A stretch of DNA of 64,000 nucleotides from an uncultured Gemmatimonadota bacterium. GTDB lineage: Bacteria > GCA-2686955 > CAYMWF01. Within the stretch, counting starts at the first letter, position 1. Every line of letters starts with the position of its first letter. The translations under genes and the position numbers were made by a program. A model generated the notes under the pieces. It had not been told where the DNA came from. It ran no database searches and saw only the letters and a list, made by a program, of their open reading frames with translations. The stretch covers positions 11,615 to 75,614 of the forward strand of contig CAYMWF010000020.1 in the NCBI GenBank assembly GCA_964394085.1. Reading direction: 5' to 3'. Below are positions 5,024 to 55,092 of the stretch, piece by piece.

Positions 5024-5056
5024 GTTCAAATATTGAACTTTCTCCACGTGGAGAAA
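5024..5056. promoter_or_regulatory. Composite palindromic element: GTTCAAATATTGAAC followed by the perfect 18-bp palindrome TTTCTCCACGTGGAGAAA
   Basis: Perfect self-complementary 18-mer at 5039-5056. A nearly identical 33-bp composite recurs at 34236-34267. The site is intergenic, downstream of ALDH and upstream of a beta-helix gene. Confidence 0.6.
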
Positions 5057-5598
5057 ATCCTAAAAATAAAACAAGGCTCGCACCTTCAATACTTACAACA
5101 AGTTCCGCGTACTACAAAACCGCCGACCGCTCTCGACTGCGATCCGGAGTGACTCCTGATAATACCAAAAATTGAACATTGCAACTAAAGCAACCGGTAA
5201 GACTGACGCAGAATACAACCCATTACTCCACAGCCGGGCGCAGACGAGAGGTGTAAACACACACCGTTTCGCGGCAGCAAAACGCCGACCTCGATTCCCT
5301 CTCCTGACCCCGACGAACGAGCCGGTTTTCACCTCCCAGCCACGGGCGAATCACCTCCACCATGAACACGTGTTCCAGATTCATGCGTTCCAGGTTCACC
5401 ACTGCGTTAACCTTGATTTTATCGTGTGAACCCACACTTGAGCCCTACCAATCGGTGCTTTCGGTGGCCCCAGACTTCGCCCTGTCGATCGATTCAGTCC
5501 GCTTACAGGAATTCACCGATTGAACTTGTTTCTTCAGGAACTCACCGCTGGTTAACCACTAATATTTGCTCTCCAGAATCATACCGGCTATACTGTAA

Positions 5599-8500
5599 AT
5601 GCAATCAGTAACGAAAATCACGAAAAGGAACGGACAAATGAAACAGGCGATTGTTATTCTCTTTCTACTGACCCTTACGGCGGAAAGCTCCCACGCGGCG
5701 ACCATTCGCGTCCCCTCCGAACAGCCGACCATCCAGGCGGGAATCGACGCGTCCGTAGACGGCGACACGGTGCTCGTGGCCGACGGTACTTACTCCGGTA
5801 CTGGCAACAGAGAAATCGACTACCTTGGCAAAACTGTAACCGTCACGTCAGAGAACGGGGCCGATTATTCGATTATCGACTGTGAAAAGAACGGCAGGGG
5901 ATTCAATTTCGTCAGCGGTGAGGATTCCTTCTCAAAGCTGGAAGGATTCACAATCACGAACGGATGCCCTCCCGATCACGGCGGCGGGATCTATCTTTAC
6001 GAATCCTCGCCGGATATAGCCGATTGCATCATATCCGGAAATATCGGTTCAGGTTATTCCGGCAGCGGCGGCGGGATATACTGCCGGTCATCTTCACCAG
6101 ATATTTCTCATTGCCGAATAATCGATAATATTGCACTCGGAGCGATCAGTGACGGCGGCGGGATCAAATGTTACGATTCATCTTCCCCGGCGATTGCATA
6201 CTGCATTATTTCCGGAAATACCGTCGGCGATGACGGCGGCGGGATTTCCTCCGGTTTCTCATCACCGGAACTTTTCAATTGTAACATTACCGGGAATATC
6301 TCTGACAATCGCGGCGGTGGGATCTATCTGTATAAATCCCCATCAGATATCACGGGATGCATTATTTCGGAGAATACGTCTTCGAATCAGGGCGGTGGGA
6401 TATATATCGAGAATTCTTCCCCATCGATGACTGATTGTTTTGTACAATTAAATTCCTCGAATAACGAAGGAGGGGGGATCTTCTGCAACTGGTTCTCCTG
6501 CTTGACTCTCACGAACAATTTAATAACAGATAATTCAACGAGGGTCGGCGGCGGAGTTTATTGCGAGGACTCATCCTTGTATTTTACCAATTGCACTTTA
6601 TCCAGAAATTCTGCTTCAAACGGCGGCGGAATATATTGCCTGGAGTCCAACCTGACCATCGTAAATTCCATACTCTGGGACGATGCACACGAAGAGTTGA
6701 TCGTTGACTCCGGAACTCCTTTGATAACTTATTCCACCATCCAGGGCGGCTGGGAGGGTGAAGGCAATATCGATGAGGATCCCATGTTCACAGCACCACA
6801 GGAGGGCGACTTTCACTTGCTGCCAGACTCTCCAAGCATCGATTCGGGAGACCCTTTTTCAAGACTGGATCTAGATAGCACCATCAATGATATGGGCTGT
6901 TACGGAGGGATGGGTGATCTGCCTGAGGGGGTTATCGGAGGATCGGTATCCGGTAAGCTGTCCAAATCTGGATCCCCTTATATTATTTCGGAGAACCTGG
7001 TGATTGAATCCGACAGTACTCTCATTGTGGAAAAGGGTGTAGAGCTTCTTCTGCACAACCATGGTGGCATCACCGTGTATGGGGAATTGCTCGCGGAAGG
7101 AGCCCCCGATGATTCGATAACCATAAAAAGATATCGGGACTGGGACATTGGCGCAGGGATTCGTTTCGACGGAGGAAGTGGAACACTTGTCTATTGCACG
7201 ATCAAGCACTGTCGCAACAGATTCGCGGGTGCGATCTATTGTCGCAGGGCTTCGCCAACTGTGTCGGATTGCTTCATATCAGAGAATACGGCTGACAGGT
7301 ACGGTGGAGGGCTCTATTGCTTCGATTCTTCCGATCCGTCAATTCGAAACTGCCGTATCACAGGAAATACAAGTGCTTTCGGCGGCGGGATCTATCTTTA
7401 CGAATCCTCGCCGGATATAGCCGATTGCATCATATCCGGAAATATCGCTACCATGAATGGAGGCGGGATCTATTGCTACAAAGGCGACTCCCCGGTCATC
7501 TCGCACTGCGAAATATCAGGGAATCAGACTTCCGACTCCGACGGAGACGGCGGAGGAATCTACTGCTATCGCTCCTCCCCGACCTTTATGAACTGCATCA
7601 TTACCGGGAATAAAACCAGGGGATTTTACGACTGCGATGGCGGCGGAATCTATTGCGATGACTCCTGCCCGGAATTATCAGGCTGCACAATTTCGGAAAA
7701 CACCGCTGGAGAAGGAGGAGGAATATATTGCAAAAACGACTCCTCACCGGTTATCACCGAGTGCGTGATTATCGGGAATCTGGTCGTTGATGATGGAGGT
7801 GGGCTCTTTTGTATAGAGTCCTCCCCGATTATCACGAGCTGCGATATAATCGGGAACATCACTACAAGCTGGGCAAGCGGCGGCGGTGGAATCTATTGCG
7901 GAAATTCCTCTCCGTATATAACGGGCTGCAGTATAACCGGAAATTCAGCCGAGGACTACGGCGGTGGGTTCTATTGTAACTATTATTCATCACCATTCAT
8001 AGTCGACTGCACAATAGATGGGAATTCGGCCGGTGACTTCGGCGGCGGACTCCGATGCTACGACTCTTCCTCCCCGACCATTATAAATTGCAGTTTAAGC
8101 GGGAATACAGCCGGTTATCACGGTGGAGGGCTTTATATCTATGGTTCATCGCCGATAATCACCAACTGCATATTCTGGGGAGATTCACCTGAAGAAATAT
8201 ATGTTTATTCGGGAAACCCGGTCGTCGCTTTTTCAGACATCCAAGACGGCTGGCCAGGAGAAGGCAATCTCGATACCGATCCTTTCTTCGTAAAGAGGGA
8301 ATGGGGAGACTACAGAATATGCTGGGATTCGCCCTGTATAGACTCCGGTCATCCCGATTCTCTCGATCCCGACGGAACGAGAATTGATATGGGCGCTCAT
8401 TACTTCGATCAGGCCAAAGAGCTACTCGTCTATCTTTCACCCGAAACCTGCGAAATCGCTCCAGGCATCCATGGTTCGGTCTGCTATACCGTTTGCAATT

Positions 8501-8766: not shown

Positions 8767-8785
8767 CCTTGTTGCCTGAATCCAC

Positions 8786-8812
8786 GAGATTTTTCCTTAC
8801 GTGAAGACAGAC
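8786..8812. promoter_or_regulatory. Degenerate ACGTG-core motif (TTTTCCTTACGTGAAGACAG) immediately downstream of beta-helix gene
   Basis: Variant of the recurring motif. A similar half-site TTTTCCTCACGTCAGATCG follows the paralog at 15291-15310. Confidence 0.35.
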
Positions 8813-10918: not shown

Positions 10919-11102
10919 ACCGTGGAGCGGCAGTCTGCGGCCGGCCGTTTGTGAGACGGTCGGCACCCGAGTCCCGACACCGCGCCTGCAGGTTTACATA
11001 ATAAATCGCGCATGAAGCTGACGACCGCTTCGCGTTCGCAGCTTATCCGCGAAAGGGTTTCCAAGCGCGAATGACGGGCTGGATCACGATATCGGAGCAT
11101 AG

Positions 11103-13334: not shown

Positions 13335-13352
13335 TTCCCCGCGTGGAGAAAA
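13335..13352. promoter_or_regulatory. Degenerate copy of TTTCTCCACGTGGAGAAA motif (TTTTCCCCGCGTGGAGAAAAT)
   Basis: About 110 bp upstream of the beta-helix gene at 13461. Confidence 0.45.
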
Positions 13353-15266: not shown

Positions 15267-15533
15267 TCCTGTCCGTTGGAGTCCATGGAAATTTTCCTCA
15301 CGTCAGATCGGGTCAAAAGTCATCCAGTCGGCAGGAATCGTTCAGAATCCCATGGATACGAACCTTTGGGCAGGTGGGGAAGGGAGCGCCTTCCCGCCCT
15401 GAGGAGCACGCTGCGTCATCCGGGCAGAAAGGCGCTCCCTCCTCATTTCCCCGGTGACGAAACCTGGAAGAAGGCAACTGAAACTCGTATCCTCTTTTTG
15501 ACCCAGTCTGACGTGAAGAATCCGGGGGCGATC

Positions 15534-16841
15534 TCAAGGTTCGGGCAGGCTGAGGAGGAAGCGCCACGCCGGTTCGATCTTTATTTTTCCCGCGTCAACC
15601 GTTATCTCGTCCTCCTGGTTCCGCGTCACGATCGTGCCCGACTTCAGGCCCTGTTCGGCCATTGCTTCACTCAAAGCGGAAACCTCCCGTTTCCTGGTTT
15701 TCGGTTCGGCGATCGATTCGCAAACCTGAACAAGCACGGGAGAACGGGCCTGCATTTGCACTAAAAAATCAACCTCCCGGCCGCTCTTCGTCTTGTAATA
15801 AAAAATACCCGGTGTGACGCGTCTGAACGCCGTGAACACGAGGTTCTCCAGCAAATGGCCGGAGTTCACAAGAATACCCGATGCAATCGAAGTGACAAGG
15901 GCATGGTCGATGCAATAGCACTTTTTCGGGTTTGTTCTGCTGCGGGCGAGTGACGAATCGAATATCCTAACGGTAAATAAAAAATAGGCGTCTTCGAACC
16001 ATACGAGGTAATCCGACACAGCTGACTTCGGGGCTTTATGCCCCAGGGATTTAAGATAACCGGTCAGACTGTTGACCGAGTAGAGCGAGGCGATATTGTC
16101 GATAAGCCGGTGCGCCAGGTCCTTTACCGCTCTCGGGTGTGAAATATCATGCCGCTCGACCAGATCCCTGAACAGTATCGCCTGAAAATATTCCTGGTGG
16201 ATTTTGATTCGCAAGTGCCGATCGAGGCCGGCGACTTCCGGAAACCCGCCGGTTTCCCAGTATTCTTCGAACGCCTTCTGCACGAACAACCGTTTCCTGG
16301 TCGACAGCCGGCCTGCAGCATCAATCTTCTTGAAGTCCAGGAACTCCCTGAATGAAAAAGGAAACATTTCCCAGGACAATGCCCTCCCCCGCATCTGCGT
16401 GGCTATTTCCCTCGAAAGCATCCGGGCCGATGAACCGGTTATGTGCACGACACATTTTTCGGTTCGCATCACCCGGTCCACGAAAGGCTCCCATCCGTCG
16501 ACCGCCTGGATTTCGTCAAAAAAATAATACACCGTCTCCGCGTTCTTCTTTTCAGGATATATAGAATAGTAGGCTTCGGTGATCGCTCCTAAACCCTCCT
16601 TCCGAAGGTTATGAAGACGATCGTCAAAAAAATTCAGATAAAGGATGTTTTCTCGAGGAACGCCGTCGTCGAGCAGTCGTTTGATCACCTGGAACAGGCT
16701 GGTGGTTTTCCCGCTGCGGCGCACACCGATACAGACTGCGGCTTTTCCGCGAACCGCCCTGATTTTCAAGCGCCTGGGAACACCTGTCTCGAGTTCGAGC
16801 TCCTGATAATCCAGTATGATCGACTTCATTGCTTCAATCAT
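15534..16841 (-). CDS. AAA+ ATPase, DUF4143 family (COG1373-type predicted ATPase)
   Basis: Walker A GVRRSGKTT, Walker B YYFFDEIQ, and a DUF4143-like C-terminal region. Lower GC than the neighbours. Confidence 0.85.
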   Translation of the reverse strand: MIEAMKSIILDYQELELETGVPRRLKIRAVRGKAAVCIGVRRSGKTTSLFQVIKRLLDDGVPRENILYLNFFDDRLHNLRKEGLGAITEAYYSIYPEKKNAETVYYFFDEIQAVDGWEPFVDRVMRTEKCVVHITGSSARMLSREIATQMRGRALSWEMFPFSFREFLDFKKIDAAGRLSTRKRLFVQKAFEEYWETGGFPEVAGLDRHLRIKIHQEYFQAILFRDLVERHDISHPRAVKDLAHRLIDNIASLYSVNSLTGYLKSLGHKAPKSAVSDYLVWFEDAYFLFTVRIFDSSLARSRTNPKKCYCIDHALVTSIASGILVNSGHLLENLVFTAFRRVTPGIFYYKTKSGREVDFLVQMQARSPVLVQVCESIAEPKTRKREVSALSEAMAEQGLKSGTIVTRNQEDEITVDAGKIKIEPAWRFLLSLPEP

Positions 16842-16980: not shown

Positions 16981-17100
16981 GGCAGGCTGAGGAGGAAGCG
17001 CCGCGCCGGTTCGATCTTTATTTTCCCCGCGTCAACCGTTATCTCGTCCTCCTGGTTCCGCGTCACGATCGGCCCGAATCAGGCCTTGCCCGGCCATTGC
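16981..17100 (-). pseudogene. Decayed 3' fragment of a second DUF4143 ATPase gene (tandem paralog remnant)
   Basis: The 120-bp segment is about 95% identical to 15545-15666, which encodes the last 41 aa of the intact ATPase (AMAEQGLKSGTIVTRNQEDEITVDAGKIKIEPAWRFLLSLPEP). The remnant carries a 2-nt deletion causing a frameshift. Weaker similarity continues to about 17160. Confidence 0.6.
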
Positions 17101-17237: not shown

Positions 17238-19304
17238 CTATCCCGCAGAGACGCCGTCACAGCGGGAAAGGTACGCCCTGGCGGTGACGTCGTCCCGGCA
17301 CCTGGCGAGGCAGTCGCGGAACAGCGTTGCCGCGCGGTTCCGGTCGCCGTCATGGAAGAGCGCTACAGCCTCCTGGAACGAATCCCTGGTATCCAGCTTA
17401 CTCTCCTTGAGACCGGGGGGATCGGCATCGAAGACTTCGTAGATGCTTACCGGCTCGACCCGCCCCCGCACCCGGACCCAGTCGATTAACCTCATGGAGA
17501 AGGTCTCCAGCCGGTTCAGGCGATGGTGGGTCATACCGCTGATCAGGATCGATGAACCGTGGTTCTTGTTCATCCCTTCGATACGGGAGGCGAGGTTCAC
17601 GGCATCGCTGATGACCGTCCCCTCCATCCGGTCGCGCCCCCCGACAATGCCGAGCATCATCGGCCCGGTATGGATACCGATGCCGATGCGGATTCCGCCG
17701 TGCGCATCACCAAACTCCCGGTTGAACCCGTCGAGCTCCGCCTGCATCGCCACCGCGGCCGCCACCGCCCGGTCCGGATCTCCCTCGAAGAGCGCCATCA
17801 CTCCGTCGCCGAGGAACTTCACGATGAAACCGCCGTGACGCGTCACCACCGGTTCCATGGTGCGGTGGTACGCGTTGATGAAGCGAAAATTCCGTTCCGG
17901 GCTCATCCGCTCGGAGAGTGTGGTGAAGGACCTGATGTCCGAAAACAGAATGGACATCTCCTTGCGAATACAGTCGCCGAGTTCTATCGAAAGGATGTCC
18001 CTCTTCTCGAGGCTCTCGAGGAATTCCCGCGGGACGAAGCGGCGAAAGGTTTCACTCAGCGCGGCAACCTTACGCGACTCGTCGAGCTCCCGCCGAAGCG
18101 CTTCCTCCCGCTCCTTCTTGAAGATATTGAACCGATCGCCGAGGGCGAGAGAGAGGAGCGTGACCTCGATCACCGAGCCTATTCTGTACGCATTCTCCGT
18201 GATGATGTTGATGGGCAGGATGCCGAAGAGAGTGAGTACGAGCACGCCCATGCCCGCGAGGTACCAGAGCCAGGCGACGAGGAAGTAGCGTGCCGGGCGG
18301 TATCCCCTCCTCCAGCATACCGCGCCCGCCGTGAGGAGCGTCACGGGGATGACGAATCCTTCGAGCGAGAGGCAGCGGTTCACCACCTGGGACTGCACCA
18401 GGAAAGGCGCCGCCATGGTAGCGAGCGCGCAGGCCGTCAACACCAGGAAAACCACGTTGAACCCGGGTGCGTTTCGCTTGATATCCAGGTAGCGCCTTGT
18501 GAACTGTATCACGAAAACCATGCCGAAGCTGCCGAAGAAGATCGGGCTCGCCTGCTTCCAGCCGGGCGAGTCCGGCCAGAGGAGTTCGTATGCGATTCCG
18601 TCGAAGGAGGAGAGGAAGAGAATGTTCCCGATGATGTAGAGCACGTAGTAGAGATAGGTCGAGTCGCGGACGGCGGTGAGGATGAGCAGGTTGTAAAGGG
18701 CGATCACGGCCAGGGCGCCGTAGAGCAGGCCGCGCACCAGGCGGTCGAGCCGATCGTGCCGTGCGAAGGACGCCGGGTTCCATATCTTCACGGGAAGGCG
18801 CATGGTGCCGTTGCTCGCGAAGCGCAGGTACACGTCGATCGAATCACCCGCAGCGAGCGTTACCGGGAAAAGCGGGTGGCGGTGACGCACTTCCCTTTCG
18901 GTGAGCGGAATCTTGTCTCCGGACTCGAAAGTCGCCTCCAGTGTGCCGTCCGGGCGGAGGAAGTAAGCCGTCACCCAGTCCATGTTCGGATGCGGATGCT
19001 CGAGGATCCATTCCGCGGGACGGGACAAGCCGTTCTTGAGCCGGAACCTCATCCAGAAGACCGAATCGGAGAACCCGAAGCTCGGGACGGCACGGCCGCT
19101 GCCCGAGAAATGGCCCGTAAGGACCGGCGATACCACCTCCAGGATGCTGAACCTCCCCGCCGCATCCTCGAGGATTTCGCTCCCGCCGCCGATGGGAAAC
19201 GACTCCATGCCTTCTTCGAGGAGAGTCAGGGGAACGGCGAGCGCCGTGCCGGAGAGAAGCATTATCGCCAGCAGCAGTGCGAGGTATCCCGTTCGGCATC
19301 CCAT
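17238..19304 (-). CDS. 7TM receptor (7TMR-DISM) linked class III adenylate/guanylate cyclase
   Basis: Signal peptide, a periplasmic 7TMR-DISM-like domain, 7 TM helices, and a C-terminal cyclase domain (FSDIRSFTTLSE ... FLGDGVMALF ... GIHTGPMMLGIVG). Confidence 0.85.
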   Translation of the reverse strand: MGCRTGYLALLLAIMLLSGTALAVPLTLLEEGMESFPIGGGSEILEDAAGRFSILEVVSPVLTGHFSGSGRAVPSFGFSDSVFWMRFRLKNGLSRPAEWILEHPHPNMDWVTAYFLRPDGTLEATFESGDKIPLTEREVRHRHPLFPVTLAAGDSIDVYLRFASNGTMRLPVKIWNPASFARHDRLDRLVRGLLYGALAVIALYNLLILTAVRDSTYLYYVLYIIGNILFLSSFDGIAYELLWPDSPGWKQASPIFFGSFGMVFVIQFTRRYLDIKRNAPGFNVVFLVLTACALATMAAPFLVQSQVVNRCLSLEGFVIPVTLLTAGAVCWRRGYRPARYFLVAWLWYLAGMGVLVLTLFGILPINIITENAYRIGSVIEVTLLSLALGDRFNIFKKEREEALRRELDESRKVAALSETFRRFVPREFLESLEKRDILSIELGDCIRKEMSILFSDIRSFTTLSERMSPERNFRFINAYHRTMEPVVTRHGGFIVKFLGDGVMALFEGDPDRAVAAAVAMQAELDGFNREFGDAHGGIRIGIGIHTGPMMLGIVGGRDRMEGTVISDAVNLASRIEGMNKNHGSSILISGMTHHRLNRLETFSMRLIDWVRVRGRVEPVSIYEVFDADPPGLKESKLDTRDSFQEAVALFHDGDRNRAATLFRDCLARCRDDVTARAYLSRCDGVSAG

Positions 19305-19363
19305 GGGTCTGTTCCCTTCCCGGTCCCGGGGCGGGCGTAACCGGGCCGCCCGCGCCGTCCGTG

Positions 19364-20911
19364 CTACTTCATGAATCCGTATCGCTTCAATTTCTTGATG
19401 AGCCCCTGCCTGCTGAGGCCGAGCGCGGCCGCCGTGCGCGTCCGGTTGCCGCCGTGGTCGCGGAGTGCTTCCCGGATGAGTCTTTTTTCAAGCGCTTCCA
19501 CCCTCTCTTTCAAGCCATCCTCGTCCGGCAGCGGCGCGCCGCCCGCCGCGGAACGCCCGACCTCGCGGATTGCCTCCGAGAGATCACCCGCCCCGATCAC
19601 CCGCCGCCGGGTCAGAACCACGATCCGCTTGATCTCGTTTTCGAGCTCACGGACGTTACCGGGCCACCGGTAGCGCTTCAGGCAATGAAGCGCGTCGGGT
19701 GCGAACCGCTTCGGCTCGCGGTTCATTTCGCGGCAGTACCGGGCGAGAAAGTAAGCCGCGAGCATGGGAATGTCGTCCGGAATCTCCGTGAGGGAGGGCA
19801 CTGTAAGGTGAATCACCTTCAGGCGGTAGTAGAGATCCTCCCTGAACGCTCCTTCGGCGATCTCGCGTTCGAGGTTCTTGTTCGTGGCGGCGAGGACCCG
19901 CACGTCCACCAGAACCGACCCGCGTCCGCCGACACGTTCTATCACCCCTTCCTGGAGCGCTCGCAGTATCTTCGCCTGGGCGGTAAGGCTCAGGTCGCCT
20001 ATCTCATCGAGGAAAAGGGTGCCGGTGTCGGCTTCCTGGAACTTGCCGGGGCGCCGCTCCACCCCGGTGGCGACCCCCTTTTCGATGCCGAACAGCTCGC
20101 TCTCGAGGAGCGTATCGGGAAGGGCCGCGCAGTTCAGGGCCACCAGAGGATTACCCGCCCGCGGGGAGCCGTAGTGGATGGCGCGGGCGCACAGCTCCTT
20201 TCCCGTGCCGCTCTCGCCGGTGATGAGGACGTTCACGGAGCTGTCGCTGATCTGGTCGATGAGATCCCGCATGTGGCGAAGTTTCTCGCTGTTCCCGATG
20301 ATGTGTTTTGTCGAGAACCGCTCCTCGACCTCCCGGAGGAGCTGCAAATTCTGTACCTGGAGTCGATCCCGGTGCCACCGGAGCTCCTGGATATGCTGCG
20401 CCGTCTCGAAGGCGACCGCGGCCTGGGACGCGAGCGCCTTGAGGAGTTCCTCGTCGTCCGCGTCGAAAGGGCCGGCGTGCTTGTTCAGCACCTCGAAGGC
20501 GCCGATTATCTCGCCCCCGTGGTTCCGCATGGGCACGGCGAGCAGGCGCTCGGTCGTGTAGCCCATCACGGCGTCGATATCTCCGTAGAACCGCTCGTCC
20601 GACCGGGCGTCGGCCACATTTATCACTTCACCCGTCCTGATCACCGCGCCGGCGATCCCCTTGTCCGCGTCGAACCGGATCGGCTCGATGCCGATCGCCA
20701 CCTGGGACCAGAGCTCGTTCGCGTCCCGGTCGAGAAGGAAGATACTCGCCCGGTCAGCTTCCATGAGCGTCGCCGCCTCCCGCGCCACCAGGTCGAGCAG
20801 GGCGGCGAGGTCGTGCTCGGAGCTCATCATCTGGCATATACCGAGGAGCGACTGGAGCTTCTCGGACGTCTTGGACATGTCGTGCGTATCGCGGCCGTCA
20901 CGGTCGTTCAT
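19364..20911 (-). CDS. Sigma-54-dependent transcriptional activator with N-terminal GAF domain (Fis family)
   Basis: GAF domain, AAA+ sigma-54 interaction domain (GESGTGKE, GAFREDLYYRL) and a C-terminal Fis HTH. Confidence 0.9.
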   Translation of the reverse strand: MNDRDGRDTHDMSKTSEKLQSLLGICQMMSSEHDLAALLDLVAREAATLMEADRASIFLLDRDANELWSQVAIGIEPIRFDADKGIAGAVIRTGEVINVADARSDERFYGDIDAVMGYTTERLLAVPMRNHGGEIIGAFEVLNKHAGPFDADDEELLKALASQAAVAFETAQHIQELRWHRDRLQVQNLQLLREVEERFSTKHIIGNSEKLRHMRDLIDQISDSSVNVLITGESGTGKELCARAIHYGSPRAGNPLVALNCAALPDTLLESELFGIEKGVATGVERRPGKFQEADTGTLFLDEIGDLSLTAQAKILRALQEGVIERVGGRGSVLVDVRVLAATNKNLEREIAEGAFREDLYYRLKVIHLTVPSLTEIPDDIPMLAAYFLARYCREMNREPKRFAPDALHCLKRYRWPGNVRELENEIKRIVVLTRRRVIGAGDLSEAIREVGRSAAGGAPLPDEDGLKERVEALEKRLIREALRDHGGNRTRTAAALGLSRQGLIKKLKRYGFMK

Positions 20912-22863: not shown

Positions 22864-23016
22864 AGATTTTCTTCACGCGAAGAATCGGCTTCAGAGACGC
22901 CCGGAAATCCGGGGCCGCCGGAACCGGGAAATCGAACCCGGATTTTCTCCACGTGGGGAAGCGGCGGCGGAGACGGCGGGAAATCTGAGTCGGGATTTTC
23001 TTCATGTGAAGAATCA
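22864..23016. repeat. Three spaced copies of the TTCTYCA-CGTG-GAAGAA palindromic motif (22867-22885, 22945-22962, 22997-23015)
   Basis: Direct reading. They lie between two beta-helix genes. The ORF 22828..23121 covering them is judged spurious. Confidence 0.6.
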
Positions 23017-26959: not shown

Positions 26960-28750
26960 TCAGCGTCTCAGGATGCGCCCCGGAAGAGGGTCAGGTTCGA
27001 AGCCGTCCGGGTCGAGGAGCTTCTTCCCGTTGATGAACACGTATTCGATCCCTTCGGGGTGGTGACGGGGATCCTGAAACGTGGTCCGGGTTCGGATACG
27101 ATCCGGGTTGAAGACCACGAGATCCGCGAAGCATCCGTGGTCGATGCGGCCGCGGTTCCGGAGGCCGGCCTGTTCGGCGGGGAGGAGCGTCATCTTCCTC
27201 ACCGCTTCTTCGAGGCTGATGGCGCGGCGCCGTGTCACGAACTCCTCTATGTAGCCGGGATAGCAGTCGTAAAAGAGGTGGGACGGCCGGCCGAAACCGA
27301 GGAGAATCGTGTCGGTGACTATGGAGGCGCCGGGGTCGAGCAGCGGAGCGTTGATCAGATCGAGGGCGAGCTTGTCGTCGGGGTCGGACATCCCTCCGAA
27401 TACGAGGACCCGCCCCTCCTCCTCGAGCAGCAGATCGCAGGCTGCGTCGAGCGGGTCGGAGGCGCGTTCGCAGGCCAGGGCCGTGAGGGAAGCGCCTTCG
27501 TATTTACTGTTGCGGTCGCTCGCCACGGACATGATGCGGAGAGCGTCCCAGCCGAGCATCCTGACGAGGTTGAGAGACCAGTCGTCTCCGTGGTGGGGCC
27601 AGCGCGCCCTCCTGCCGCTGAAACTCCGTCGCAGCCGCTCCCTCACCCGCGGATCGGACAGGCGGCGGAGCACCTTCGCTGAACCGCCCTCGAGCAGCCA
27701 CGGCGGAAAGAAGGCGAGAAGGTGGGTGAAGCCGGTGGTGGTCGGCAAAACGTCGGCGCCTGCAGCGACCCTGCCCTTCTCCCGAAGCCGTTCGAGCCTC
27801 GAGAGAACCCTCCGCAGCGGAAGATCTATCGGGAGCCTGGTTCCGGTGCTCCGCCTCCATGCGGAAAGCGCCGCCGTAAGAGGCTTCGAGAGGAACGCCG
27901 CTCTCCCGAGGTCGGGCACCCAGAGGAGATGGGAGAGCTGAACGCGGACGCCGGTCCGTTCCGCGATCCCAATCGCCTCGTCCGCCGCCCTTCCCACCCC
28001 GTCGGTATAGCTTCGGAGGTGGAGGGCAAGGTATCCTCCCGCCCGGGCGACCGCTGCGGCGAGTTCCTCGATCTCATCGGTGGACGCCTGCAGCCCCGGA
28101 AAGTATTGAAGACCGCACGACATCCCGAACGCCCCCTGCTCGAGGCAGGTTTCGAGGTTCGAGCGCATCTTCCGCCGCGCATCCGCGCCGGGCGTCCCGG
28201 TGGAAAGACCCATGGCGTCGATCCTGAGGAGGGCGTGGGGCGCGAGCAGGGCGGCGTTGAGGAGGGTGCCCCGGCCCTCGAGAAAGGAGCAGAAGGAGTC
28301 GAAATCGTCCCATCCCGCGATATCCTCCTCCTCCCGTGAAGTGAAGGTGCGGATATACTCCGAAATGAGGTCTGCGTTCGGTCCTCCGGACGGCGCCATC
28401 GACATGCCGCAGTTTCCGCCAACGAAAGTGGTGATGCCCTGGCGCACGAGCGGCTCCAGGATACGGACGTGATCGGGATCGTAGATGCTCATTTCCGCGT
28501 GGGAATGGATATCGATGAAACCGGGGCAGGCGCAGCTCCCGTTCATATCGATTACCGAAACAGAGTCCGAGCCGTCGCTTCCAGCAGGCCCGGAGCTTGC
28601 CGGTCGATCGCCGGTCGCGGCCCGGCCGAACCGGGTTCCGGCACCGTTCAGCACGAAACGATCCCCCGCGATTCCGATGTCTCCGAGCCGGCTTTTACCG
28701 CCGGTGCCGTCGATAATCCGGCAGTTTTTCAGGAGGTAATCGAGTTTCAT
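26960..28750 (-). CDS. N-acyl-D-amino-acid deacylase (D-aminoacylase), amidohydrolase superfamily
   Basis: N-terminal KNCRIIDGTGG...IGIAGDRF and metal-binding PGFIDIHSHAE. The layout matches D-aminoacylases. Confidence 0.85.
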   Translation of the reverse strand: MKLDYLLKNCRIIDGTGGKSRLGDIGIAGDRFVLNGAGTRFGRAATGDRPASSGPAGSDGSDSVSVIDMNGSCACPGFIDIHSHAEMSIYDPDHVRILEPLVRQGITTFVGGNCGMSMAPSGGPNADLISEYIRTFTSREEEDIAGWDDFDSFCSFLEGRGTLLNAALLAPHALLRIDAMGLSTGTPGADARRKMRSNLETCLEQGAFGMSCGLQYFPGLQASTDEIEELAAAVARAGGYLALHLRSYTDGVGRAADEAIGIAERTGVRVQLSHLLWVPDLGRAAFLSKPLTAALSAWRRSTGTRLPIDLPLRRVLSRLERLREKGRVAAGADVLPTTTGFTHLLAFFPPWLLEGGSAKVLRRLSDPRVRERLRRSFSGRRARWPHHGDDWSLNLVRMLGWDALRIMSVASDRNSKYEGASLTALACERASDPLDAACDLLLEEEGRVLVFGGMSDPDDKLALDLINAPLLDPGASIVTDTILLGFGRPSHLFYDCYPGYIEEFVTRRRAISLEEAVRKMTLLPAEQAGLRNRGRIDHGCFADLVVFNPDRIRTRTTFQDPRHHPEGIEYVFINGKKLLDPDGFEPDPLPGRILRR

Positions 28751-29190
28751 GCGGAATCTCCTTCCGCCATTCGCTGCCCGATTCGGGCCACCAGTTCGAG
28801 GAACCGCTCCCTGTCGGTGTCTTCGATCAACGCCAGAAGCCCGGCGGACACGTCCAGGAAGAGTTTTTTATACCGCGCCAGGACTTCCTCGCCCTTCGGA
28901 GCCAGCCGAACCTCCACCGCTCTCCTGTCGTTCGGTGCGGGAAGCCGTTCGAGCATCCCGTCGCGCACCATCCGGTCAGCCACCCAGCTGACCGTGCTGA
29001 GGGGCAGCTCCAGGGTTCCGGCGAGCTCGCCGATGCGGCGCGCGCCGAGCCTGTCGAGCCGGATGAGAATAGCCAGCTCCTTGGGATTCACGTCGAGCTG
29101 CGTATCCCGGTAAAGCTCGAGCCTGTTGTAGACGGCTTCGATCACCCCGGCAAGCAGCTCCGGACCCTGTCGCGCCTCTGTTTCATGCAT
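28747..29190 (-). CDS. MarR family transcriptional regulator
   Basis: Winged-HTH MarR core (LAILIRLDRLGARRIGELAGTLELPLSTVSWVADRMVRDGMLER). Start taken at MHETEAR. The stop overlaps the downstream D-aminoacylase start. Confidence 0.85.
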   Translation of the reverse strand: MHETEARQGPELLAGVIEAVYNRLELYRDTQLDVNPKELAILIRLDRLGARRIGELAGTLELPLSTVSWVADRMVRDGMLERLPAPNDRRAVEVRLAPKGEEVLARYKKLFLDVSAGLLALIEDTDRERFLELVARIGQRMAEGDSA

Positions 29191-29313
29191 CCCAATCCTC
29201 CAATCATTGGATATTATAATTATTATATTATCCAATCTTTGGAATAAATCAAGAGAAAATAACAATTTCTTGCGTTTCGAGCCGCAGCGCAAAGCGCCTA
29301 TTCAAAGACAACT

Positions 29314-29331
29314 TTTCTTCACGTGGAGAAA
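29314..29331. promoter_or_regulatory. TTTCTTCACGTGGAGAAA (one mismatch to the perfect palindrome)
   Basis: Between the 3' end of the minus-strand beta-helix gene (29493) and the MarR start (29190). Confidence 0.5.
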
Positions 29332-34086: not shown

Positions 34087-34235
34087 CCGGCTGAATGTTA
34101 CAGCCGTTTCGAGGTCAATGATTAAATTCTAACCGGCTGGATCCGCTGACGCAAATTCAATTGCCATTATTTCGACGCTAACTGCCGGCGCCAGGGGCCC
34201 GTCGGGCACGGAAGGCGCCGACGCCGTTTCCAACT

Positions 34236-34267
34236 GTTCAAAAATTGAACTTTCTCCACGTGGAGAA
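34236..34267. promoter_or_regulatory. Composite palindromic element GTTCAAAAATTGAAC + TTTCTCCACGTGGAGAA (second copy of the 5024-5056 element)
   Basis: About 32 bp, near-identical to 5024-5056. It lies in a divergent intergenic region. Confidence 0.6.
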
Positions 34268-34517
34268 TTTTTCGGCCAGGTGATTCCGATTCTCATGGTG
34301 ACTTTTCGGCAAGATAGTCAGGCTTACCGTGGCAAATTTTTCGGCTGGATAGTTCCGCTTCTCGTGTTGAATCTTTCGGCCAGGTGATTCCGCTTCTCGC
34401 GGTGCATCTTTAGGCCAGGTAATACCCCTTGATCCATCCCGTTGCGAGGTCCGTCGATTCAAAAAATATTTCGCCGATTGTATATTTTCCTGCAAGCCGA
34501 TACTCTCGACCCTGAAC

Positions 34518-37275: not shown

Positions 37276-38919
37276 TCACTTTGTATTCGAGAGTATGACT
37301 CCCCTGTTTACGATGCGGAACCGGTCGCTCTTCGATTCATCCCCCTGGAGGGCAGAGCCCCCAAGGCTGTCGGTAAAGATGTGAGCCACCGAGTCAGGAA
37401 TGATGAATCCGGGTCGCACAGACACCAGGCCGCAATATTCCCGGGCTCCCATGTCGGGGTTTTCACCGCAATAATACTCATCCAGTCCTGCTATCTTGAT
37501 GCCGGCGTCGATGCAGGGGGAATCTCCGGGCAGCAAAAAGGCCTTGTCAACATCGGTGAGCGGATCTTCGAATATCGAGCCTGCCCCGGGAATGTACACA
37601 TCGCCATCGGCATTGTTCCAGTAGCAGTTGTGGTGGTGCGGCGTTCCGAAGCCGTACGTCAACGCCCGGCCGGAGCGTGTTTCGAGAAATATGTTGTTTA
37701 TTACACCCCCCTCGGTTCTCAAGTGAGTCACGGAACCGCCATAGACTTCACCGTATATACCAGGATATGCGCCATTGCCGAAAAAGGTATTGTTGTAGAT
37801 CCCGGCAAATGCGTCATCTCCGAAACACTCGATGCCACCGCCGGAGCCGGAATACCAGTAGGTTCCCGCACGATTGAAAAGAAAGAGGTTCCCGTATATG
37901 AGGCTGCTGCACTCCTTCGATACCTTGATCGCGCCCCCGTTCTCGGCCTCGTTGCGAATGAACAGGTTGTTCCTGATCTCCGGTGAACCGTCCCTGATCT
38001 TCAGCGCCCCGCCGCAACTGCCGCTTTCTCCCGCTTCAACATGGGGCGCTGTATTGTTCGAGAACTCGTTATTGCATACGAGAAGCCCGTCGCAGTTTGA
38101 GAGGTGGAGTGCCCCGCCTTCTCCGCCGTCGTACTCTCCCCATTCCCTTTCGCCGAATGCAACGTTTCCCGTGAAACGGCAACCAGAGATTATGCCCCTG
38201 ACATTACTGATTGATCCCCCTCCCCCTCTCTGTGCTTCATTATTACTGATTATGCAATCACGCATCACAAGATCTGAACGGTATATATTCAGCCCACCAC
38301 CAGAACTATGATTGTTAATCGAACCGATGACGTTGTTTACGATTCTACAGTCGAGTATCTTCAAAGAAGACTCATTTGCATATATACCGCCTCCCAGTAG
38401 ATAATCATGCAAATATTCGGTTCCTCCCCCATTCCGCAAAGTCAGCCCTTCAAGTATGCTCGTAGTATCTTCGCCAGACAGAAACGTTACTACGCTGCCA
38501 ACCCCTCCTCCGTCAATTACAGTTTCCTCGGCTCCAGCTACACCCTTCACCACTATCGCCTTGCCGAGAAAATCGAGATGCTCGTAGTACGTGCCTGGAT
38601 ATACCAGCACGGTGTCCCCGTCCGAAGCGTGCTCGATGCACCACTGGATGGCCGGGTTGCCCGGCTTCGAATGCCAGATGCCGTCCGGGAGACCGGTAGA
38701 ATTTGAACAATCGTTGTTCTCATTGGGGATGGAGCCGGCGAAAGCGCATGCAGGCAGGAAAACCGTGAAAAAAATTCGGAGAAGCATACTTTTAAGCCGT
38801 TTCTTCCCTTGAAGACGAATAGGTGCTACTGTTTTAAAGACGTACTTATCCATTGTTTCCTCTCCAACATTATAACCGGAATTCCACCTGCATACCTCCG
38901 TGTATTCACACCTGCTCAA
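37276..38919 (-). CDS. Secreted right-handed parallel beta-helix repeat protein (paralog 6, divergent)
   Basis: Signal peptide MLLRIFFTVFLPACAFA, then NPAIQWCIEHASDGDTVLVYPGTYYEHLDFLGKAIVVKG, GGG-rung repeats, C-terminal PDMGAREY. Confidence 0.75.
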   Translation of the reverse strand: MSRCEYTEVCRWNSGYNVGEETMDKYVFKTVAPIRLQGKKRLKSMLLRIFFTVFLPACAFAGSIPNENNDCSNSTGLPDGIWHSKPGNPAIQWCIEHASDGDTVLVYPGTYYEHLDFLGKAIVVKGVAGAEETVIDGGGVGSVVTFLSGEDTTSILEGLTLRNGGGTEYLHDYLLGGGIYANESSLKILDCRIVNNVIGSINNHSSGGGLNIYRSDLVMRDCIISNNEAQRGGGGSISNVRGIISGCRFTGNVAFGEREWGEYDGGEGGALHLSNCDGLLVCNNEFSNNTAPHVEAGESGSCGGALKIRDGSPEIRNNLFIRNEAENGGAIKVSKECSSLIYGNLFLFNRAGTYWYSGSGGGIECFGDDAFAGIYNNTFFGNGAYPGIYGEVYGGSVTHLRTEGGVINNIFLETRSGRALTYGFGTPHHHNCYWNNADGDVYIPGAGSIFEDPLTDVDKAFLLPGDSPCIDAGIKIAGLDEYYCGENPDMGAREYCGLVSVRPGFIIPDSVAHIFTDSLGGSALQGDESKSDRFRIVNRGVILSNTK

Positions 38920-41297: not shown

Positions 41298-41329
41298 GTG
41301 AGTGAGTGAGTGAGTGAGTGAGTGAGTGA
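41298..41329 (-). repeat. Tetranucleotide SSR (TCAC)8 on the coding strand, (GTGA)8 on plus
   Basis: Eight perfect units counted directly, 15 nt downstream of ATG 41345. Confidence 0.9.
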
Positions 41330-47053: not shown

Positions 47054-47200
47054 GCGTTAATATTTGAGAGCGATCGCCGGATGGCGGATAATTTTTGAAA
47101 TACTATTCAGCGGCCGCGTTAGTATTCTGAAACGTTGTTCATCGATCGCGTTAGTATTCTGAAATGTTGTCCGGCGATCGCCTTAACATTCCGGAATAAT
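47054..47200. repeat. Three copies (two tandem) of a ~34-bp direct repeat GCGTTAGTATTCTGAAAYGTTGT...CGATCGC in promoter region
   Basis: Read directly. Located upstream of the minus-strand gene starting at 46949. Confidence 0.6.
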
Positions 47201-49844: not shown

Positions 49845-49942
49845 TTCGTTCCATCCTCGATGAGAATAAATGCGGGGCCGGTCAGCGAGCGATAAACGCC
49901 GCTTTCAATGACATTGATATTATAACATCCGCAGGACCATAA

Positions 49943-50115
49943 TTCTCCTTGTGGAGAAAATGGGCGGACGGAGAAGCCGCCCGCGGCAGAGTAAAAAGCC
50001 CAGCCTGGTTTACATAATATTTCTTCACACGGAGAAAATGGGCGGACGGAGAAGCCGCCCGCGGCAAAGTAAAAAGCCCAGCCTGGTTTACATAATATTT
50101 CTTCACACGGAGAAA
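49943..50115. repeat. About 2.5 tandem copies of a ~71-bp unit, each carrying a degenerate TTTCTYCAC-GGAGAAAA motif
   Basis: Unit ...atatttcttcacacggagaaaatgggcggacggagaagccgcccgcggcaRagtaaaaagcccagcctggtttacataat. Divergent region between the 49844 (minus) and 50309 (plus) genes. Confidence 0.8.
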
Positions 50116-52402: not shown

Positions 52403-52863
52403 CGGCGGGCATGAGCGCCGACCCTTCCGCGGGCGGCACGCCGCAGACGATGACTCCGCTCCGGAAGGCGATGGAGCAGCCAGGATGAACCCGATGGCTC
52501 CGGGAGCGGTATTCCCCGGGCGGTGGAGACTTCCGCGTGTGCAGGAGCAGCCAGGATGAACCCGATGGCTCCGGGAGCGACACGGACGACGATGGAGCTT
52601 CCACGGAAGGCGGCACTGGCGGGCCGCGGATCCTCCCCCGCGAACGGAACGGCGGCGTTCCCCTTTTCATACCCGCCGGAGCGCTTCTTGACAACCGGCT
52701 GCCGGCGTGTGAATATCCCGCTTATCATACAGCTTACGTGGGTGCGGTGATTGCTCTTATCGATTACTGCGGCTGTAGGGAGGGGGTAAGAAAAATCCCC
52801 GCACGGCGGCTGACTATCCTGCGGTGCTGAACCTCCACCGGCAAACGGCCGGCACATATCTCC

Positions 52864-53553
52864 ATGGCTCGAACGAAAATCATATACTGTTCCGGACCGC
52901 TCTTCTCTCCCGAAGAAATCGCGGCCATGACAAGAATCGGCGCGGTGCTCGAGGAGGCCGGTTACGATACTTTCGTTCCCCACCGCGACGGAATCGAACG
53001 ATTCGTGATGCAGCTCACCAGGACGCCGGGGCCGAATATACCCGGCGCCGCTCCGATCAGCAGAAAGATCGGCCGCATCATTTTCGCCCTCGACGTGTAC
53101 CAGGTGGTCGAACGCTGCGATGCACTCGTATACAACATGAACGGCCGCGTCCCCGATGAGGGCGGCGCGGTGGAGACGGCCATCGCATTCGCGGTTGGAA
53201 AACCTCTGCTGATCTACAAACAGGACGCCCGTTCCACTTTCAACGGTCACGATAACGCCATGCTCATCGGGCTCACTCATAACTATTCAACCGTCGGCGA
53301 TGTCGACAAGCTGCCCGGGGAGCTCGAAAAGGTGATGGAGATGGCCGGGGAAAGCGGGACGCATAAGATGAACGGGGAGGGCGGCACGCATCCTTCCGGT
53401 GAGCGGAAGCTCCCTCCCCGTTTGCGCAGGGAGCTGGTCCTGGGACGCCGCGTCTGGCGCTTCCTCGAAAAAGCGCCCAAACCGAAATCCCACAGGGATG
53501 CGGCTCAATTGCTCGATGAGCTGGCAAAACTCAGAGGCGATGAGATCGGCTGA
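52864..53553 (+). CDS. Nucleoside 2-deoxyribosyltransferase-like protein
   Basis: N-terminal IIYCSGPLFSPEE and ..DALVYNMNG...GGAVETAIAFAVGKPLL pattern, typical of the deoxyribosyltransferase/Rcl fold. A possible promoter is TTGACA(52688)-17-GAATAT. Confidence 0.45.
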   Translation: MARTKIIYCSGPLFSPEEIAAMTRIGAVLEEAGYDTFVPHRDGIERFVMQLTRTPGPNIPGAAPISRKIGRIIFALDVYQVVERCDALVYNMNGRVPDEGGAVETAIAFAVGKPLLIYKQDARSTFNGHDNAMLIGLTHNYSTVGDVDKLPGELEKVMEMAGESGTHKMNGEGGTHPSGERKLPPRLRRELVLGRRVWRFLEKAPKPKSHRDAAQLLDELAKLRGDEIG

Positions 53554-53625
53554 CAGAACCGGCCGAACCACCATAATATCACGCATGCACCTTCAGAACC
53601 GGGTGCAGCCGGAGACAGTTTTCCC

Positions 53626-54573
53626 ATGTCAAACCAAGCAGATACCGAAGTTCTCATCGTAGGAAGCTTCGTACAGGATCTCTCCTTCCGCAGCGTCGCC
53701 TTTCCCAGACCGGGGGAAACGGTCGTAGGCACATTTTCTACCGGCCCGGGAGGCAAAGGCTCCAACCAGGCCGTTGCGGCCGCCCGATCCGGGGCGAGGA
53801 CCGCCTTCGTGGGCGCAGTCGGCCGGGATGCGTTCGGGGAGGAGGTCCGCCGCTTCTATGCCGCCGAAGGAATCGACGGGAGGTTCGCCACCAAACCGGA
53901 TGCGGCCACCGGTGCGGCGGGCATCCTGGTCGATGACGAAGGAGAGAACGAGATCGTCGTGGCCCTCGGCGCCAACCTGGAGCTCTCGACCGGCGACGTG
54001 CCCTGGGATCTCGTGAATGCCGCCCGCATCGTCGTCTGTCAGCATGAAATCGATCTGGCGACCAACGCCCGGGTGCTTGTACACGCCCGCGAACACGGGC
54101 GGACCACGGTGCTGAACCCCGCTCCGATGCGGCCCGATTTCGATGCCGACGTTCTAAGTTACGTGGATATACTTGTTCCCAACGAGATGGAGTTTGCGGC
54201 CCTCGCCGGACTCGATCCCGAAACCGTGGTAAACATGCCGGCAGTCGAACTGGAAGCTCAGGCCCGTTCCCTGGGAGTTCCGACCGTCATCATCACGCTA
54301 GGTGTGCGAGGCTGCCTCGTTTCGACGCCCGGACGCCATGCACTGCTGCCCGCCCATACCGGGATCGAAGTCGTCGATACGACCGGGGCCGGAGACGCCT
54401 TCGTCGGCGGATTCGCAGCGGGATATGTCCGGCTCGACGGCGACCTCTTCGGCGCGGCCGCCTGGGGAAACGCCGCTGCGGCCCTGTGCGTGGGACGTCC
54501 CGGAACCGCACCGGCGATGCCCCTCGAAAACGAGGTGGCGGAGCTCCTTGAATCCTCCACCGGTCCCGAGTAA
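53626..54573 (+). CDS. rbsK: Ribokinase (PfkB family)
   Basis: N-terminal VVGSFVQDL...GGKGSNQAVAAAR. C-terminal DTTGAGDAFVGGFAAG (PfkB signature 2). Confidence 0.85.
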   Translation: MSNQADTEVLIVGSFVQDLSFRSVAFPRPGETVVGTFSTGPGGKGSNQAVAAARSGARTAFVGAVGRDAFGEEVRRFYAAEGIDGRFATKPDAATGAAGILVDDEGENEIVVALGANLELSTGDVPWDLVNAARIVVCQHEIDLATNARVLVHAREHGRTTVLNPAPMRPDFDADVLSYVDILVPNEMEFAALAGLDPETVVNMPAVELEAQARSLGVPTVIITLGVRGCLVSTPGRHALLPAHTGIEVVDTTGAGDAFVGGFAAGYVRLDGDLFGAAAWGNAAAALCVGRPGTAPAMPLENEVAELLESSTGPE

Positions 54574-54825
54574 CAGCACGCCTGACGGCAAGAGCGGAAT
54601 AGAACCCCCACTGGCAAAGAGGAGCAGAACGCCCTCCGGCACGGAGCAGCAAATCGTCCACCGGGACGAGAGAACAAAACACCTCCTGCCACTTGCGAGT
54701 GGCGAAAAACCGCTTCTATCACAACGGAAAACCAAGCTGCTGAATGACCTTTCACTTGAGATTCCACCGGGGCTCCTGTTAAATGAAAAGAGACTTCTCA
54801 AAAGCGGGCGAATCCGGATTTCAAC

Positions 54826-55092
54826 TTTTGTCACGTGACAAAAATCGTCGTCGATTGGGGGGGCGTTCGGAGAAACCGGCACCGAGAGTTGCGCGGCGAG
54901 AATCGGCACCGGGCGACGGACAGCGAAAATCGACTCCAAGCACCGGGCAGCGGAAATCGGCACCGGGCGGCGGGCAGCGGGCGGCGAAAATCGGCACCGG
55001 GCGGCGGGCAGCTGAAACCGGATTCTCCACGTGGAGAAACGCCCAATTGTAGTCATTGAAGACCTGGCCGCAACTTTTGTCACGTGACAAAA
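54826..55092. promoter_or_regulatory. Array of CACGTG-core perfect palindromes upstream of hypF, plus flanking direct repeats
   Basis: TTTTGTCACGTGACAAAA at 54826-54843 and 55075-55092; TTCTCCACGTGGAGAA at 55023-55038. The region also holds about 60-bp direct repeats (54820-54880 versus 55068-55130) and 3-4 copies of aaatcggcaccgggcggcgggcagc. Confidence 0.6.

Follow-up and report, generated by a model that had tools for sequence, protein, structure and literature searches.

The stretch of DNA considered here, referred to as the window, comprises 64,000 nucleotides of contig CAYMWF010000020.1 from an uncultured Gemmatimonadota bacterium (assembly GCA_964394085.1). It encodes a family of secreted beta-helix paralogs, a hydrogenase-maturation (hyp) operon and a range of ordinary metabolic genes, between which lie short palindromes built around a CACGTG core. 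A sequence-only reading of the window had drawn attention to these palindromes as dispersed intergenic elements, and counting against shuffled sequence confirms their abundance. Class I, TTCTCCACGTGGAGAA, occurs at 11 sites with no more than three mismatches, versus 0.30 expected (0 of 100 shuffles reached 11); three copies are exact (5040-5055, 34252-34267 and 55023-55038), and the inexact ones start at 13335, 22869, 22945, 22998, 29315, 49943, 50021 and 50099. Class II, TTTTGTCACGTGACAAAA, is found twice as an exact copy, versus 0.01 expected. The sites are arranged as follows, with a strand given only for the two long tandem repeats:

5024..5038: left box B, palindrome GTTCAAATATTGAAC, fused to the next class I site to give a 33-nt composite
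5039..5056: class I perfect 18-mer TTTCTCCACGTGGAGAAA, 123 nt past the stop codon of an aldehyde dehydrogenase gene and 552 nt before beta-helix gene 5599
13335..13350: class I copy TTCCCCGCGTGGAGAA with two mismatches, in the divergent region between TauE (minus) and a beta-helix gene (plus)
22869..23013: array of three class I copies between two beta-helix genes, spaced by 76 and 53 nt: 22869 TTCTTCACGCGAAGAA, 22945 TTCTCCACGTGGGGAA and 22998 TTCTTCATGTGAAGAA, two of them with a symmetric change at positions 5/12
29315..29330: class I copy TTCTTCACGTGGAGAA with one mismatch, 134 nt upstream of a MarR-family gene (minus)
34236..34267: left box B (GTTCAAAAATTGAAC) joined to a perfect class I 16-mer in a second composite, located between divergent genes
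34254..34430, plus strand: about five degenerate tandem units with a period of ~35 nt, the palindrome being kept in the first unit only
49939..50114, plus strand: 78-nt tandem repeat with class I copies at 49943 (TTCTCCTTGTGGAGAA), 50021 and 50099 (TTCTTCACACGGAGAA)
54826..54843: class II perfect 18-mer TTTTGTCACGTGACAAAA, 350 nt upstream of hypF
55023..55038: class I perfect 16-mer, 154 nt upstream of hypF
55075..55092: class II perfect 18-mer, 101 nt upstream of hypF

Two structural claims made earlier bear on this list. The 33-nt composite with the second palindrome GTTCAA-N3-TTGAAC is indeed present twice, at 5022-5055 and 34234-34267, with 97% identity between the two copies. The tandem copies near 50 kb are borne out as a 78-nt repeat (49939-50094), but the third palindrome lies at 50099-50114 and not at 50091-50109. 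Upstream of hypF, ~70 nt surrounding the class II site at 55075 and the region around 54826 are local duplicates.

The restriction to intergenic DNA, also noted before, is strict. With genes mapped from open reading frames (ORFs), GC content at third codon positions (GC3) and Pfam, the intergenic share of the window is 13.5%, and 13 of 13 strong sites fall within it, spread over seven intergenic regions; counted by region, the chance of intergenic-only placement is 0.135^7, or ~8e-7. A search with the loose pattern TTCNNCNNNNGNNGAA yields the 11 class I sites again, along with three coding matches, a number near the chance level of 2.1, so the window holds no excess of coding copies and no hidden coding population of sites. 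An unbiased k-mer comparison places the 8-mers TTCTCCAC and CACGTGGA among the most intergenic-enriched words once tandem-repeat words are excluded. The family also extends beyond the window. The same population is represented in JGI 3300009008, 3300009128, 3300013118 and 3300013119 and in ENA ERZ23498658, from which all contigs recovered match the window at 99.7-100% identity. To the right of the window, the adjoining stretch (L002) adds two class II sites in a divergent intergenic region, and another contig from the same samples (L210; 49 kb, GC 0.597), reached via the window paralog P0125, has three sites in 20.6 kb, two of them class I-like and one class II. Overall, 18 sites are spread over ~93 kb of the window, L002 and L210, about one per 5 kb, and seven of the 18 are perfect 16-mers, three of these being perfect 18-mers.

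Conservation within the palindrome is position-specific. Across the 11 class I copies, positions 1, 2, 3, 6, 11, 14, 15 and 16 are invariant and all 15 substitutions fall on positions 4, 5, 7-10, 12 and 13. The central four bases read ACGT, ACGC, ATGT, TTGT, ACAC or GCGT and are altered in six of the 11 copies; the CACGTG core is intact in five of five class II copies from the window, L002 and L210. Every degenerate copy retains one intact 8-nt half-site, and the two copies with a symmetric arm change (22869 and 22998) share the form TTCTTC...GAAGAA. Three arm positions set class II apart from class I, each change being fully compensated on the opposite arm. As single strands, the six palindromes tested fold weakly (-4.9 to -8.4 kcal/mol, with stems of 6-7 bp), three of them no better than ~12% of shuffles, and an Rfam search returned no match. 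A role of the palindrome as a terminator or stable hairpin was rejected on account of the weak folding energy, the AT-rich stem and the absence of a T-run; a terminator-like score is obtained only for a separate GC-rich hairpin in the 78-nt units, on the minus strand and with a T-rich arm. The earlier preference for a dimeric operator over a terminator hairpin is thus upheld: a loop-less, intergenic-only palindrome of 16-18 bp with eight invariant positions more likely serves a dimeric DNA-binding protein.

Both classes match centromeres (parS) that are bound by ParB proteins. The centromeres of Burkholderiales secondary replicons (Bsr) are described as palindromes of 16 bp whose 5' end is rich in T and whose 6-bp core has CG at its centre (PMC5450999), and the perfect copies of class I and class II have this format. 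The inner 14 nt of class I are those of parS-G4 (ATCTCCACGTGGAGAT) and the inner 14 nt of class II those of parS-c3 (GTTGTCACGTGACAAC), both sites being listed in the supplementary table of PMC5450999; the chromosomal centromere consensus is TGTTNCACGTGNAACA. The agreement extends to entire 16-mers that have served as binding probes. The class I 16-mer is identical to probe S125 (TTCTCCACGTGGAGAA), which was bound significantly by ParB-G4 (42, versus 63 for the wild-type ATCTCCACGTGGAGAT; PMC5450999 S1 file), and the class II 16-mer (TTTGTCACGTGACAAA) is identical to probe S59 (TTTGTCACGTGACAAA), whose binding by ParB-c3 equalled that of the wild-type site (24 versus 22; PMC5450999). The arm variant at 22869 and 22998 corresponds to probe S95 (ATCTTCACGTGAAGAT), the only other internal symmetric change that ParB-G4 tolerated, and natural variation at positions 1/16 and 5/12 agrees with the substitutions tolerated in the same study (PMC5450999). 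With ~4 known parS variants out of 256 possible inner 14-mers around CACGTG, a match of two of the three intergenic CACGTG classes (the third, class III, is described below) has an estimated p of ~7e-4. The sequence-only reading knew of no characterised bacterial regulator with this operator; both 16-mers are in fact in vitro ligands of characterised ParB proteins (PMC5450999 S1 file), the match being one of sequence identity to sites of Burkholderia proteins and not of the host's own.

The class I 16-mer was also found in its centromeric setting. In a scan of genome contigs it lies directly upstream of parA-parB, in clusters, in at least two Burkholderia replicons: L077 has four copies at 47-257 and also encodes RepA, and L086 has two copies, at 2475 and 3339. 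By their context, these clusters are plasmid centromeres; in PLSDB, megablast found no match to the Burkholderia parS cluster. Among the matches listed, the remainder are mostly scattered over all phyla, and many are coding. Scans of viral contigs with both 16-mers returned single matches only, consistent with chance.

The palindromes of the window have, in addition, multiplied in the manner of repeats. A 31-32-nt block, GGTTTACATAATAYTTCTTCACACGGAGAAA, is found at 50007 and 50085 in the window, at L210:16589 and, on the opposite strand, at L210:14146; the copies have in common a derived core (ACAC) and the same arm asymmetry, and their similarity stops at the block edges. A second module, GTTCAAAWATTGAAC followed by the palindrome, is present at two unlinked loci (5022 and 34234). 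Since modules are common to unlinked loci, units of ~32 nt have been copied from one locus to another without regard to the genes nearby. Local duplication adds to this copying, in tandem arrays whose periods are ~35, 53-76 and 78 nt. In the 78-nt array, each of the first two units contains the GC-rich hairpin (stems 49964-49984 and 50042-50062) and the third copy is followed by non-repeat sequence; left box A, GGTTTACATAATA, is part of units 2 and 3 and is also found alone at 10991-11003. The array has one and the same sequence in the four metagenome assemblies spanning it, a fifth contig breaks off within it, and no array varies in copy number or presence among the four spanning assemblies; metagenome contigs break at site-bearing regions. 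Similarity between copies ends within ~32 nt, with no shared flanks, terminal repeats or duplications, so the sites are not part of a longer miniature inverted-repeat transposable element (MITE), which had been named as a finding that would undo the operator interpretation; the other such finding, equal frequency within coding DNA, is not seen in the window either.

The amplification is thus observed directly, as are the identity to ParB ligands, the intergenic restriction and the position-specific conservation. As the leading but tentative explanation, we propose that the palindromes are an amplified, lineage-specific family of binding sites for ParB/KorB-like dimers that would be encoded elsewhere in the genome; copied protein docking sites are more likely than a switch for beta-helix and hydrogenase genes. 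In this scheme, dimeric helix-turn-helix proteins of the ParB/KorB type would bind or load at the palindromes, class I matching the specificity of ParB-G4 and class II that of ParB-c3. The dispersed sites would serve to organise the DNA or to modulate nearby promoters, like the KorB operators of RK2, Noc sites and the half-parS of Pseudomonas, and would constitute neither a plasmid-type centromere nor a dedicated beta-helix/hyp regulon. We infer this docking role from how the sites are placed: dispersed through intergenic DNA at about one per 5 kb, in most cases 100-350 nt away from a start codon, and remote from any parAB. Amplification would have proceeded by local tandem duplication and by copying of the ~32-nt modules. 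The tandem arrays, which resemble those of plasmid centromeres, count in favour of this proposal, and perfect 16-mers in seven of 18 sites are typical of parS and unusual for ordinary operators. A bolder version strikes us as distinctly doubtful: a chromosome seeded with parS-type sites that number dozens to hundreds and fall into two or three specificities, all carried on ~32-nt copy-and-paste modules, on which ParB-fold CTP clamps would act as genome-wide, promoter-proximal regulators or organisers in the manner of KorB, their operators spreading like mobile repeats.

Known systems offer partial parallels for dispersed ParB-type docking. On RK2, KorB operators are spread among promoter regions and lie at varying distances from the promoters under their control. 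Like these operators (OB) and the BisD/bisS system of the integrative and conjugative element (ICE) ICEclc, the window carries short palindromes; OB and bisS are bound by a ParB-fold CTP-dependent clamp, and KorB slides from distal OB sites and represses over long range (PMC11790492, PMC12409273). The sequences differ, however, OB being TTTAGCGGCTAAA and bisS a 23-bp palindrome, and those regulators are encoded on their own plasmid or ICE, whereas neither such a gene nor a mobile-element backbone is seen here. In Pseudomonas aeruginosa, ParB binds hundreds of dispersed parS-related motifs outside the centromere (PMC5961200, PMC10419367), so a high number of sites is compatible with ParB. The Pseudomonas motifs are 7-nt half-sites found genome-wide with no reported intergenic bias, in contrast to the full, strictly intergenic palindromes of the window. 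With Bsr parS (PMC5450999) the resemblance is closer in form, including the perfect 16-bp palindrome, the T-rich 5' end, the CACGTG core and tandem or clustered copies, than in setting. The Burkholderia replicons L077 and L086 have a handful of identical sites next to parAB and replication genes; here, in a bacterium outside the Burkholderiales, at least 18 sites of two specificities extend over at least 93 kb of ordinary metabolic genes with no parAB nearby, many centres are degenerate, and flanking modules have been copied between loci.

A number of observations weigh against binding by ParB-type proteins. No Pfam match to ParA, ParB_N or HTH_ParB was found in the ~95 kb covered by the window, the L002 extension and L210, the scan comprising all but a few short ORFs of the curated gene list in the window and precomputed Pfam matches on L002 and L210; relaxed Pfam and NCBIfam thresholds revealed no local ParB among the unannotated ORFs either. 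The same ~95 kb contain no DnaA-box cluster, no replication genes and no canonical parS. The invariant CACGTG core of a Bsr centromere is not maintained, since six of the 11 class I centres are altered, and ParB-G4 is intolerant of symmetric changes in the centre (PMC5450999). Upstream of hypF, sites of class I and class II specificity alternate within 270 bp, and the density of sites is above that of any described parS set. A Streptomyces promoter region keeps the 16-mer with no ParB nearby, among the matches listed, and other protein families can therefore use the sequence. Copies of the ACAC variant with its 13-nt left box are present at three loci and in both orientations, an indication that the mechanism of spreading is independent of binding. 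Finally, no relative close enough for footprinting was found, the next nearest after the population itself having 54-57% identity in hypF.

Similar copying is characteristic of a well-known class of elements. Repetitive extragenic palindromes (REPs) and bacterial interspersed mosaic elements (BIMEs) of enterobacteria and pseudomonads are high-copy, strictly intergenic palindromes arranged in mosaics with other short motifs, in tandem clusters and in both orientations, all of which applies to the present family. The sites might accordingly be REP/BIME-like repeats spread by an element-specific enzyme or by recombination, with no regulatory role and a coincidental likeness to parS; we regard this as rather unlikely, although it accounts well for the dense (about one per 5 kb), intergenic and lineage-specific distribution and for modules that carry the same derived mutations at unlinked loci. 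The 33-nt composite found twice, the lone left box A at 10991, the tandem arrays and the mosaics of palindromes with left boxes A and B, the GC-rich hairpin and 27-nt repeats fit equally well, and several other short repeat families occupy the same intergenic regions, where contigs break. REPs, however, measure ~35 nt and are imperfect, GC-rich palindromes; they fold into stable hairpins, are found mostly at 3' gene ends and go together with REP-associated tyrosine transposases (RAYTs). The palindromes of the window are perfect, loop-less 16-18-mers with far weaker hairpins (-5 to -8 kcal/mol), and they lie mostly on the promoter side: sites are present in four of eight divergent, six of 28 tandem and one of 10 convergent regions, as counted from gene maps and Pfam strand assignments, with no 3'-end preference (divergent versus convergent, Fisher p ~0.09). 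Neither a RAYT nor a Y1 transposase was seen in the ~95 kb covered, a small part of the genome. The constancy of the arrays among the four spanning assemblies and the match of two of three classes to known parS variants also speak against a passive repeat. Of the REP-like alternative raised by the sequence-only reading, then, the copying of modules between loci is supported, but the hairpins are weak and the expected position at gene ends is absent.

Three further explanations were weighed against ParB-type docking sites. Operators of one or more abundant global regulators other than ParB, with half-sites TTCnnC-N4-GnnGAA, would preserve the earlier operator idea without its specific regulon, and we consider them unlikely. 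Invariant outer arms around a variable central four nucleotides are what helix-turn-helix dimers with an uncontacted spacer would leave, the sites are intergenic and mostly 100-350 nt upstream of starts, three of the five divergent promoter regions of the window contain them, and the Streptomyces 16-mer is conserved with no ParB nearby. One copy (49943-49958) even covers the -35 region of a predicted extended -10 promoter (TGTTATAAT, minus strand, 49919-49958) of the GH39 gene (minus). Yet predicted sigma-70-type promoters (TTGnnn-17-TATACT) adjoin the genes while the palindromes lie from ~35 to ~550 nt upstream of them, so that no consistent position emerges, and the neighbouring genes share no function. 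Perfect 16-18-mers are too many for an ordinary regulon, flanks and derived mutations have been copied between loci, and exact identity to ParB ligands would be left unexplained. Sites for sigma-54 enhancer-binding proteins would require promoters that are missing: TGGCAC-N5-TTGCW matches number 14 versus 18.7 expected, with none in the site-bearing regions. A true centromere, that is, an origin-proximal or secondary-replicon parS cluster for ParABS segregation, draws on the same identity to Bsr centromeres and on arrays that resemble plasmid centromere repeats; 18 sites in ~93 kb are within a few-fold of large parS clusters such as that of Myxococcus, with 22-24 sites near parAB (PMC3899335, PMC3778016). 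It is nonetheless improbable, given that neither an adjacent parA-parB pair nor an origin-proximal cluster is found in the ~95 kb, that two incompatible specificities occupy the same DNA, and that the sites are strictly intergenic with many degenerate cores; a location at the origin of replication was rejected, as there is neither a DnaA-box cluster nor a canonical parS. Least probable is an element acting in RNA, as a small stem-loop for termination, attenuation or 5' stabilisation. Compensatory or wobble-compatible arm changes around a variable centre do recall a stem and loop, and the GC-rich hairpin followed by a T-rich arm in the 78-nt units is terminator-like on the minus strand. Against this stand the short, weak stems, the lack of a T-run in the palindrome and of an Rfam match, the occurrence in divergent regions and in both orientations relative to genes, and eight positions that are invariant in base identity, beyond what mere pairing would demand.

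What is at stake differs between the readings. If ParB-type binding is correct, this would be a chromosome on which parS-like sites of more than one specificity are numerous, scattered and strictly confined to intergenic DNA; the recently recognised regulatory roles of ParB-fold clamps (KorB, BisD, VirB, Noc) would then reach beyond plasmids and ICEs to an entire chromosome, which would also show how parS-like sites can multiply. If the family is REP-like instead, it is an ordinary new repeat family in an uncultured lineage, and its chance identity to centromeres is a caution for motif-based prediction of parS.

The proposal that the motif defines a regulon coupling the beta-helix family to hydrogenase maturation is not supported. 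Genes flanking the sites include those for an aldehyde dehydrogenase, TauE, a MarR regulator, GH39, an LVIVD-repeat protein, PfkB, hypF, PhzF and CoA-transferase/methylmalonyl-CoA mutase, and are without functional coherence. The apparent clustering around beta-helix genes is statistically indistinguishable from the general intergenic density of sites. The beta-helix gene at 37276-38919 in the window has no site nearby, and the three beta-helix genes on L213 (8.7 kb, from the same sample series, possibly of another organism) have none. Beta-helix loci of other lineages, collected from a metagenome scan with an alignment of the beta-helix N-terminal region and all distant (no more than 50% identity), contain three matches at three mismatches in 661 kb versus 3.1 by chance, as judged from window shuffles. 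The motif is likewise absent from the nearest hypF relatives (L206-L209, 54-57% identity), which are too distant for footprinting; contigs closer than these all belong to the one population (99.7-100% identical). It is also absent from contigs of co-occurring organisms (GC 0.44-0.48; reached via P0198, P0269 and P0128). Because beta-helix loci of other lineages, hypF relatives and co-occurring organisms all lack the motif above chance, the palindrome family is lineage-specific and is tied neither to the beta-helix family nor to hyp genes generally.

Four further palindromes resemble the family more loosely. The half-site-like variants reported after two beta-helix genes are placed as described, but as independent sites they are doubtful: they are weak, fall below the class I criterion (not within three mismatches) and may share descent, because both lie at the same 27-nt offset after the stops of genes with paralogous 3' parts. 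The CACGTG palindromes of class III have arms unlike those of classes I and II.

8793..8808: weak half-site-like TTCCTTACGTGAAGAC, 27 nt past a beta-helix stop; doubtful member
15293..15308: weak half-site-like TTTCCTCACGTCAGAT, 27 nt past a beta-helix stop in a convergent region; doubtful member
5364..5375: class III palindrome GAACACGTGTTC, intergenic; family membership uncertain
61258..61269: class III GAACACGTGTTC (within the 14-bp palindrome GGAACACGTGTTCC at 61257), between hypB and a cytochrome gene

The surroundings of the sites show several other features. A sigma-70, extracytoplasmic function (ECF) or MerR-type core promoter in the site flanks (AACTTT ... AAAATC) was rejected on inspection for want of a consistent -10 element, and sigma-54 enhancer sites (upstream activating sequences) were rejected because no -24/-12 promoter is near the sites. 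On the minus strand, 17238-20911 encodes a 7TMR-DISM adenylate/guanylate cyclase followed by a GAF-AAA-HTH_8 sigma-54 enhancer-binding protein (19364-20911), a pair that is divergent from beta-helix gene 21313. Directly upstream of the MarR-family gene (28747-29188, minus), an AT-rich palindrome at 29208-29236 (TTGGATATTATAATTATTATATTATCCAA) is similar to a PerR/Fur box (TTATAATnATTATAA). The lone left box A (10991-11003) is directly upstream of a possible ATG before a URO-D-family gene, and left box A may be a -10-like promoter module in its own right. Short repeats are unusually abundant in the intergenic DNA of this organism, among them 27-nt units (GAAAATCGGCACCGGGCGGCGGGCAGC) between the palindromes upstream of hypF (54873-55013), a 46-nt tandem repeat (3261-3444), a 32-nt tandem repeat (47093-47188) and a (GTGA)8 microsatellite (41298-41329). 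L210 gives faint matches to a type IX secretion system (T9SS)-type C-terminal domain, by which the organism would probably belong to the FCB group.

The hyp operon of the window is without hypA, which is present in the relatives L206, L208 and L209. Between hypC and hypD, an unannotated His-rich ORF (58012-58300, plus) encodes (EDHGTH)n hexapeptide repeats from an 18-nt tandem repeat, and this repeat region has indels between metagenome contigs. The closest hypF relative, L206, has a run of N at 6428-6527 in the intergenic region directly upstream of hypF, and L207 has one at 5770-5869, ~1 kb upstream of hypF; these runs suggest repeats that are hard to assemble, with flanks containing GGAAATC words like those of the window.

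Two occurrences of the class I 16-mer in other bacteria are distinctive. In Streptomyces, at least nine loci (L015:3694, L025, L026, L028, L054, L094, L100, L111 and L112) have it with conserved flanks in the divergent promoter region between a 291-aa gene and an NhaA-thioredoxin fusion gene, with no ParB nearby, and there it is probably the operator of another regulator. In a metagenome-assembled genome of the Eubacteriales (L071:130 and 2282; also L103 and L109, among the matches listed), the 16-mer is at the centre of inverted repeats, at least 60 nt long, on either side of a 2.1-kb segment that could be invertible or transposable. Within the window, the product of an AAA_14/DUF4143 ATPase gene (15534-16841, minus) is 77-85% identical to proteins labelled Deltaproteobacteria, Thermodesulfobacteriota and Eisenbacteria. 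This similarity suggests that the gene is horizontally mobile, and its use as a lineage marker was rejected for that reason. A 91-nt copy of its 3' end (15544-15634), 98% identical, is present at 16981-17071, 1.4 kb away.

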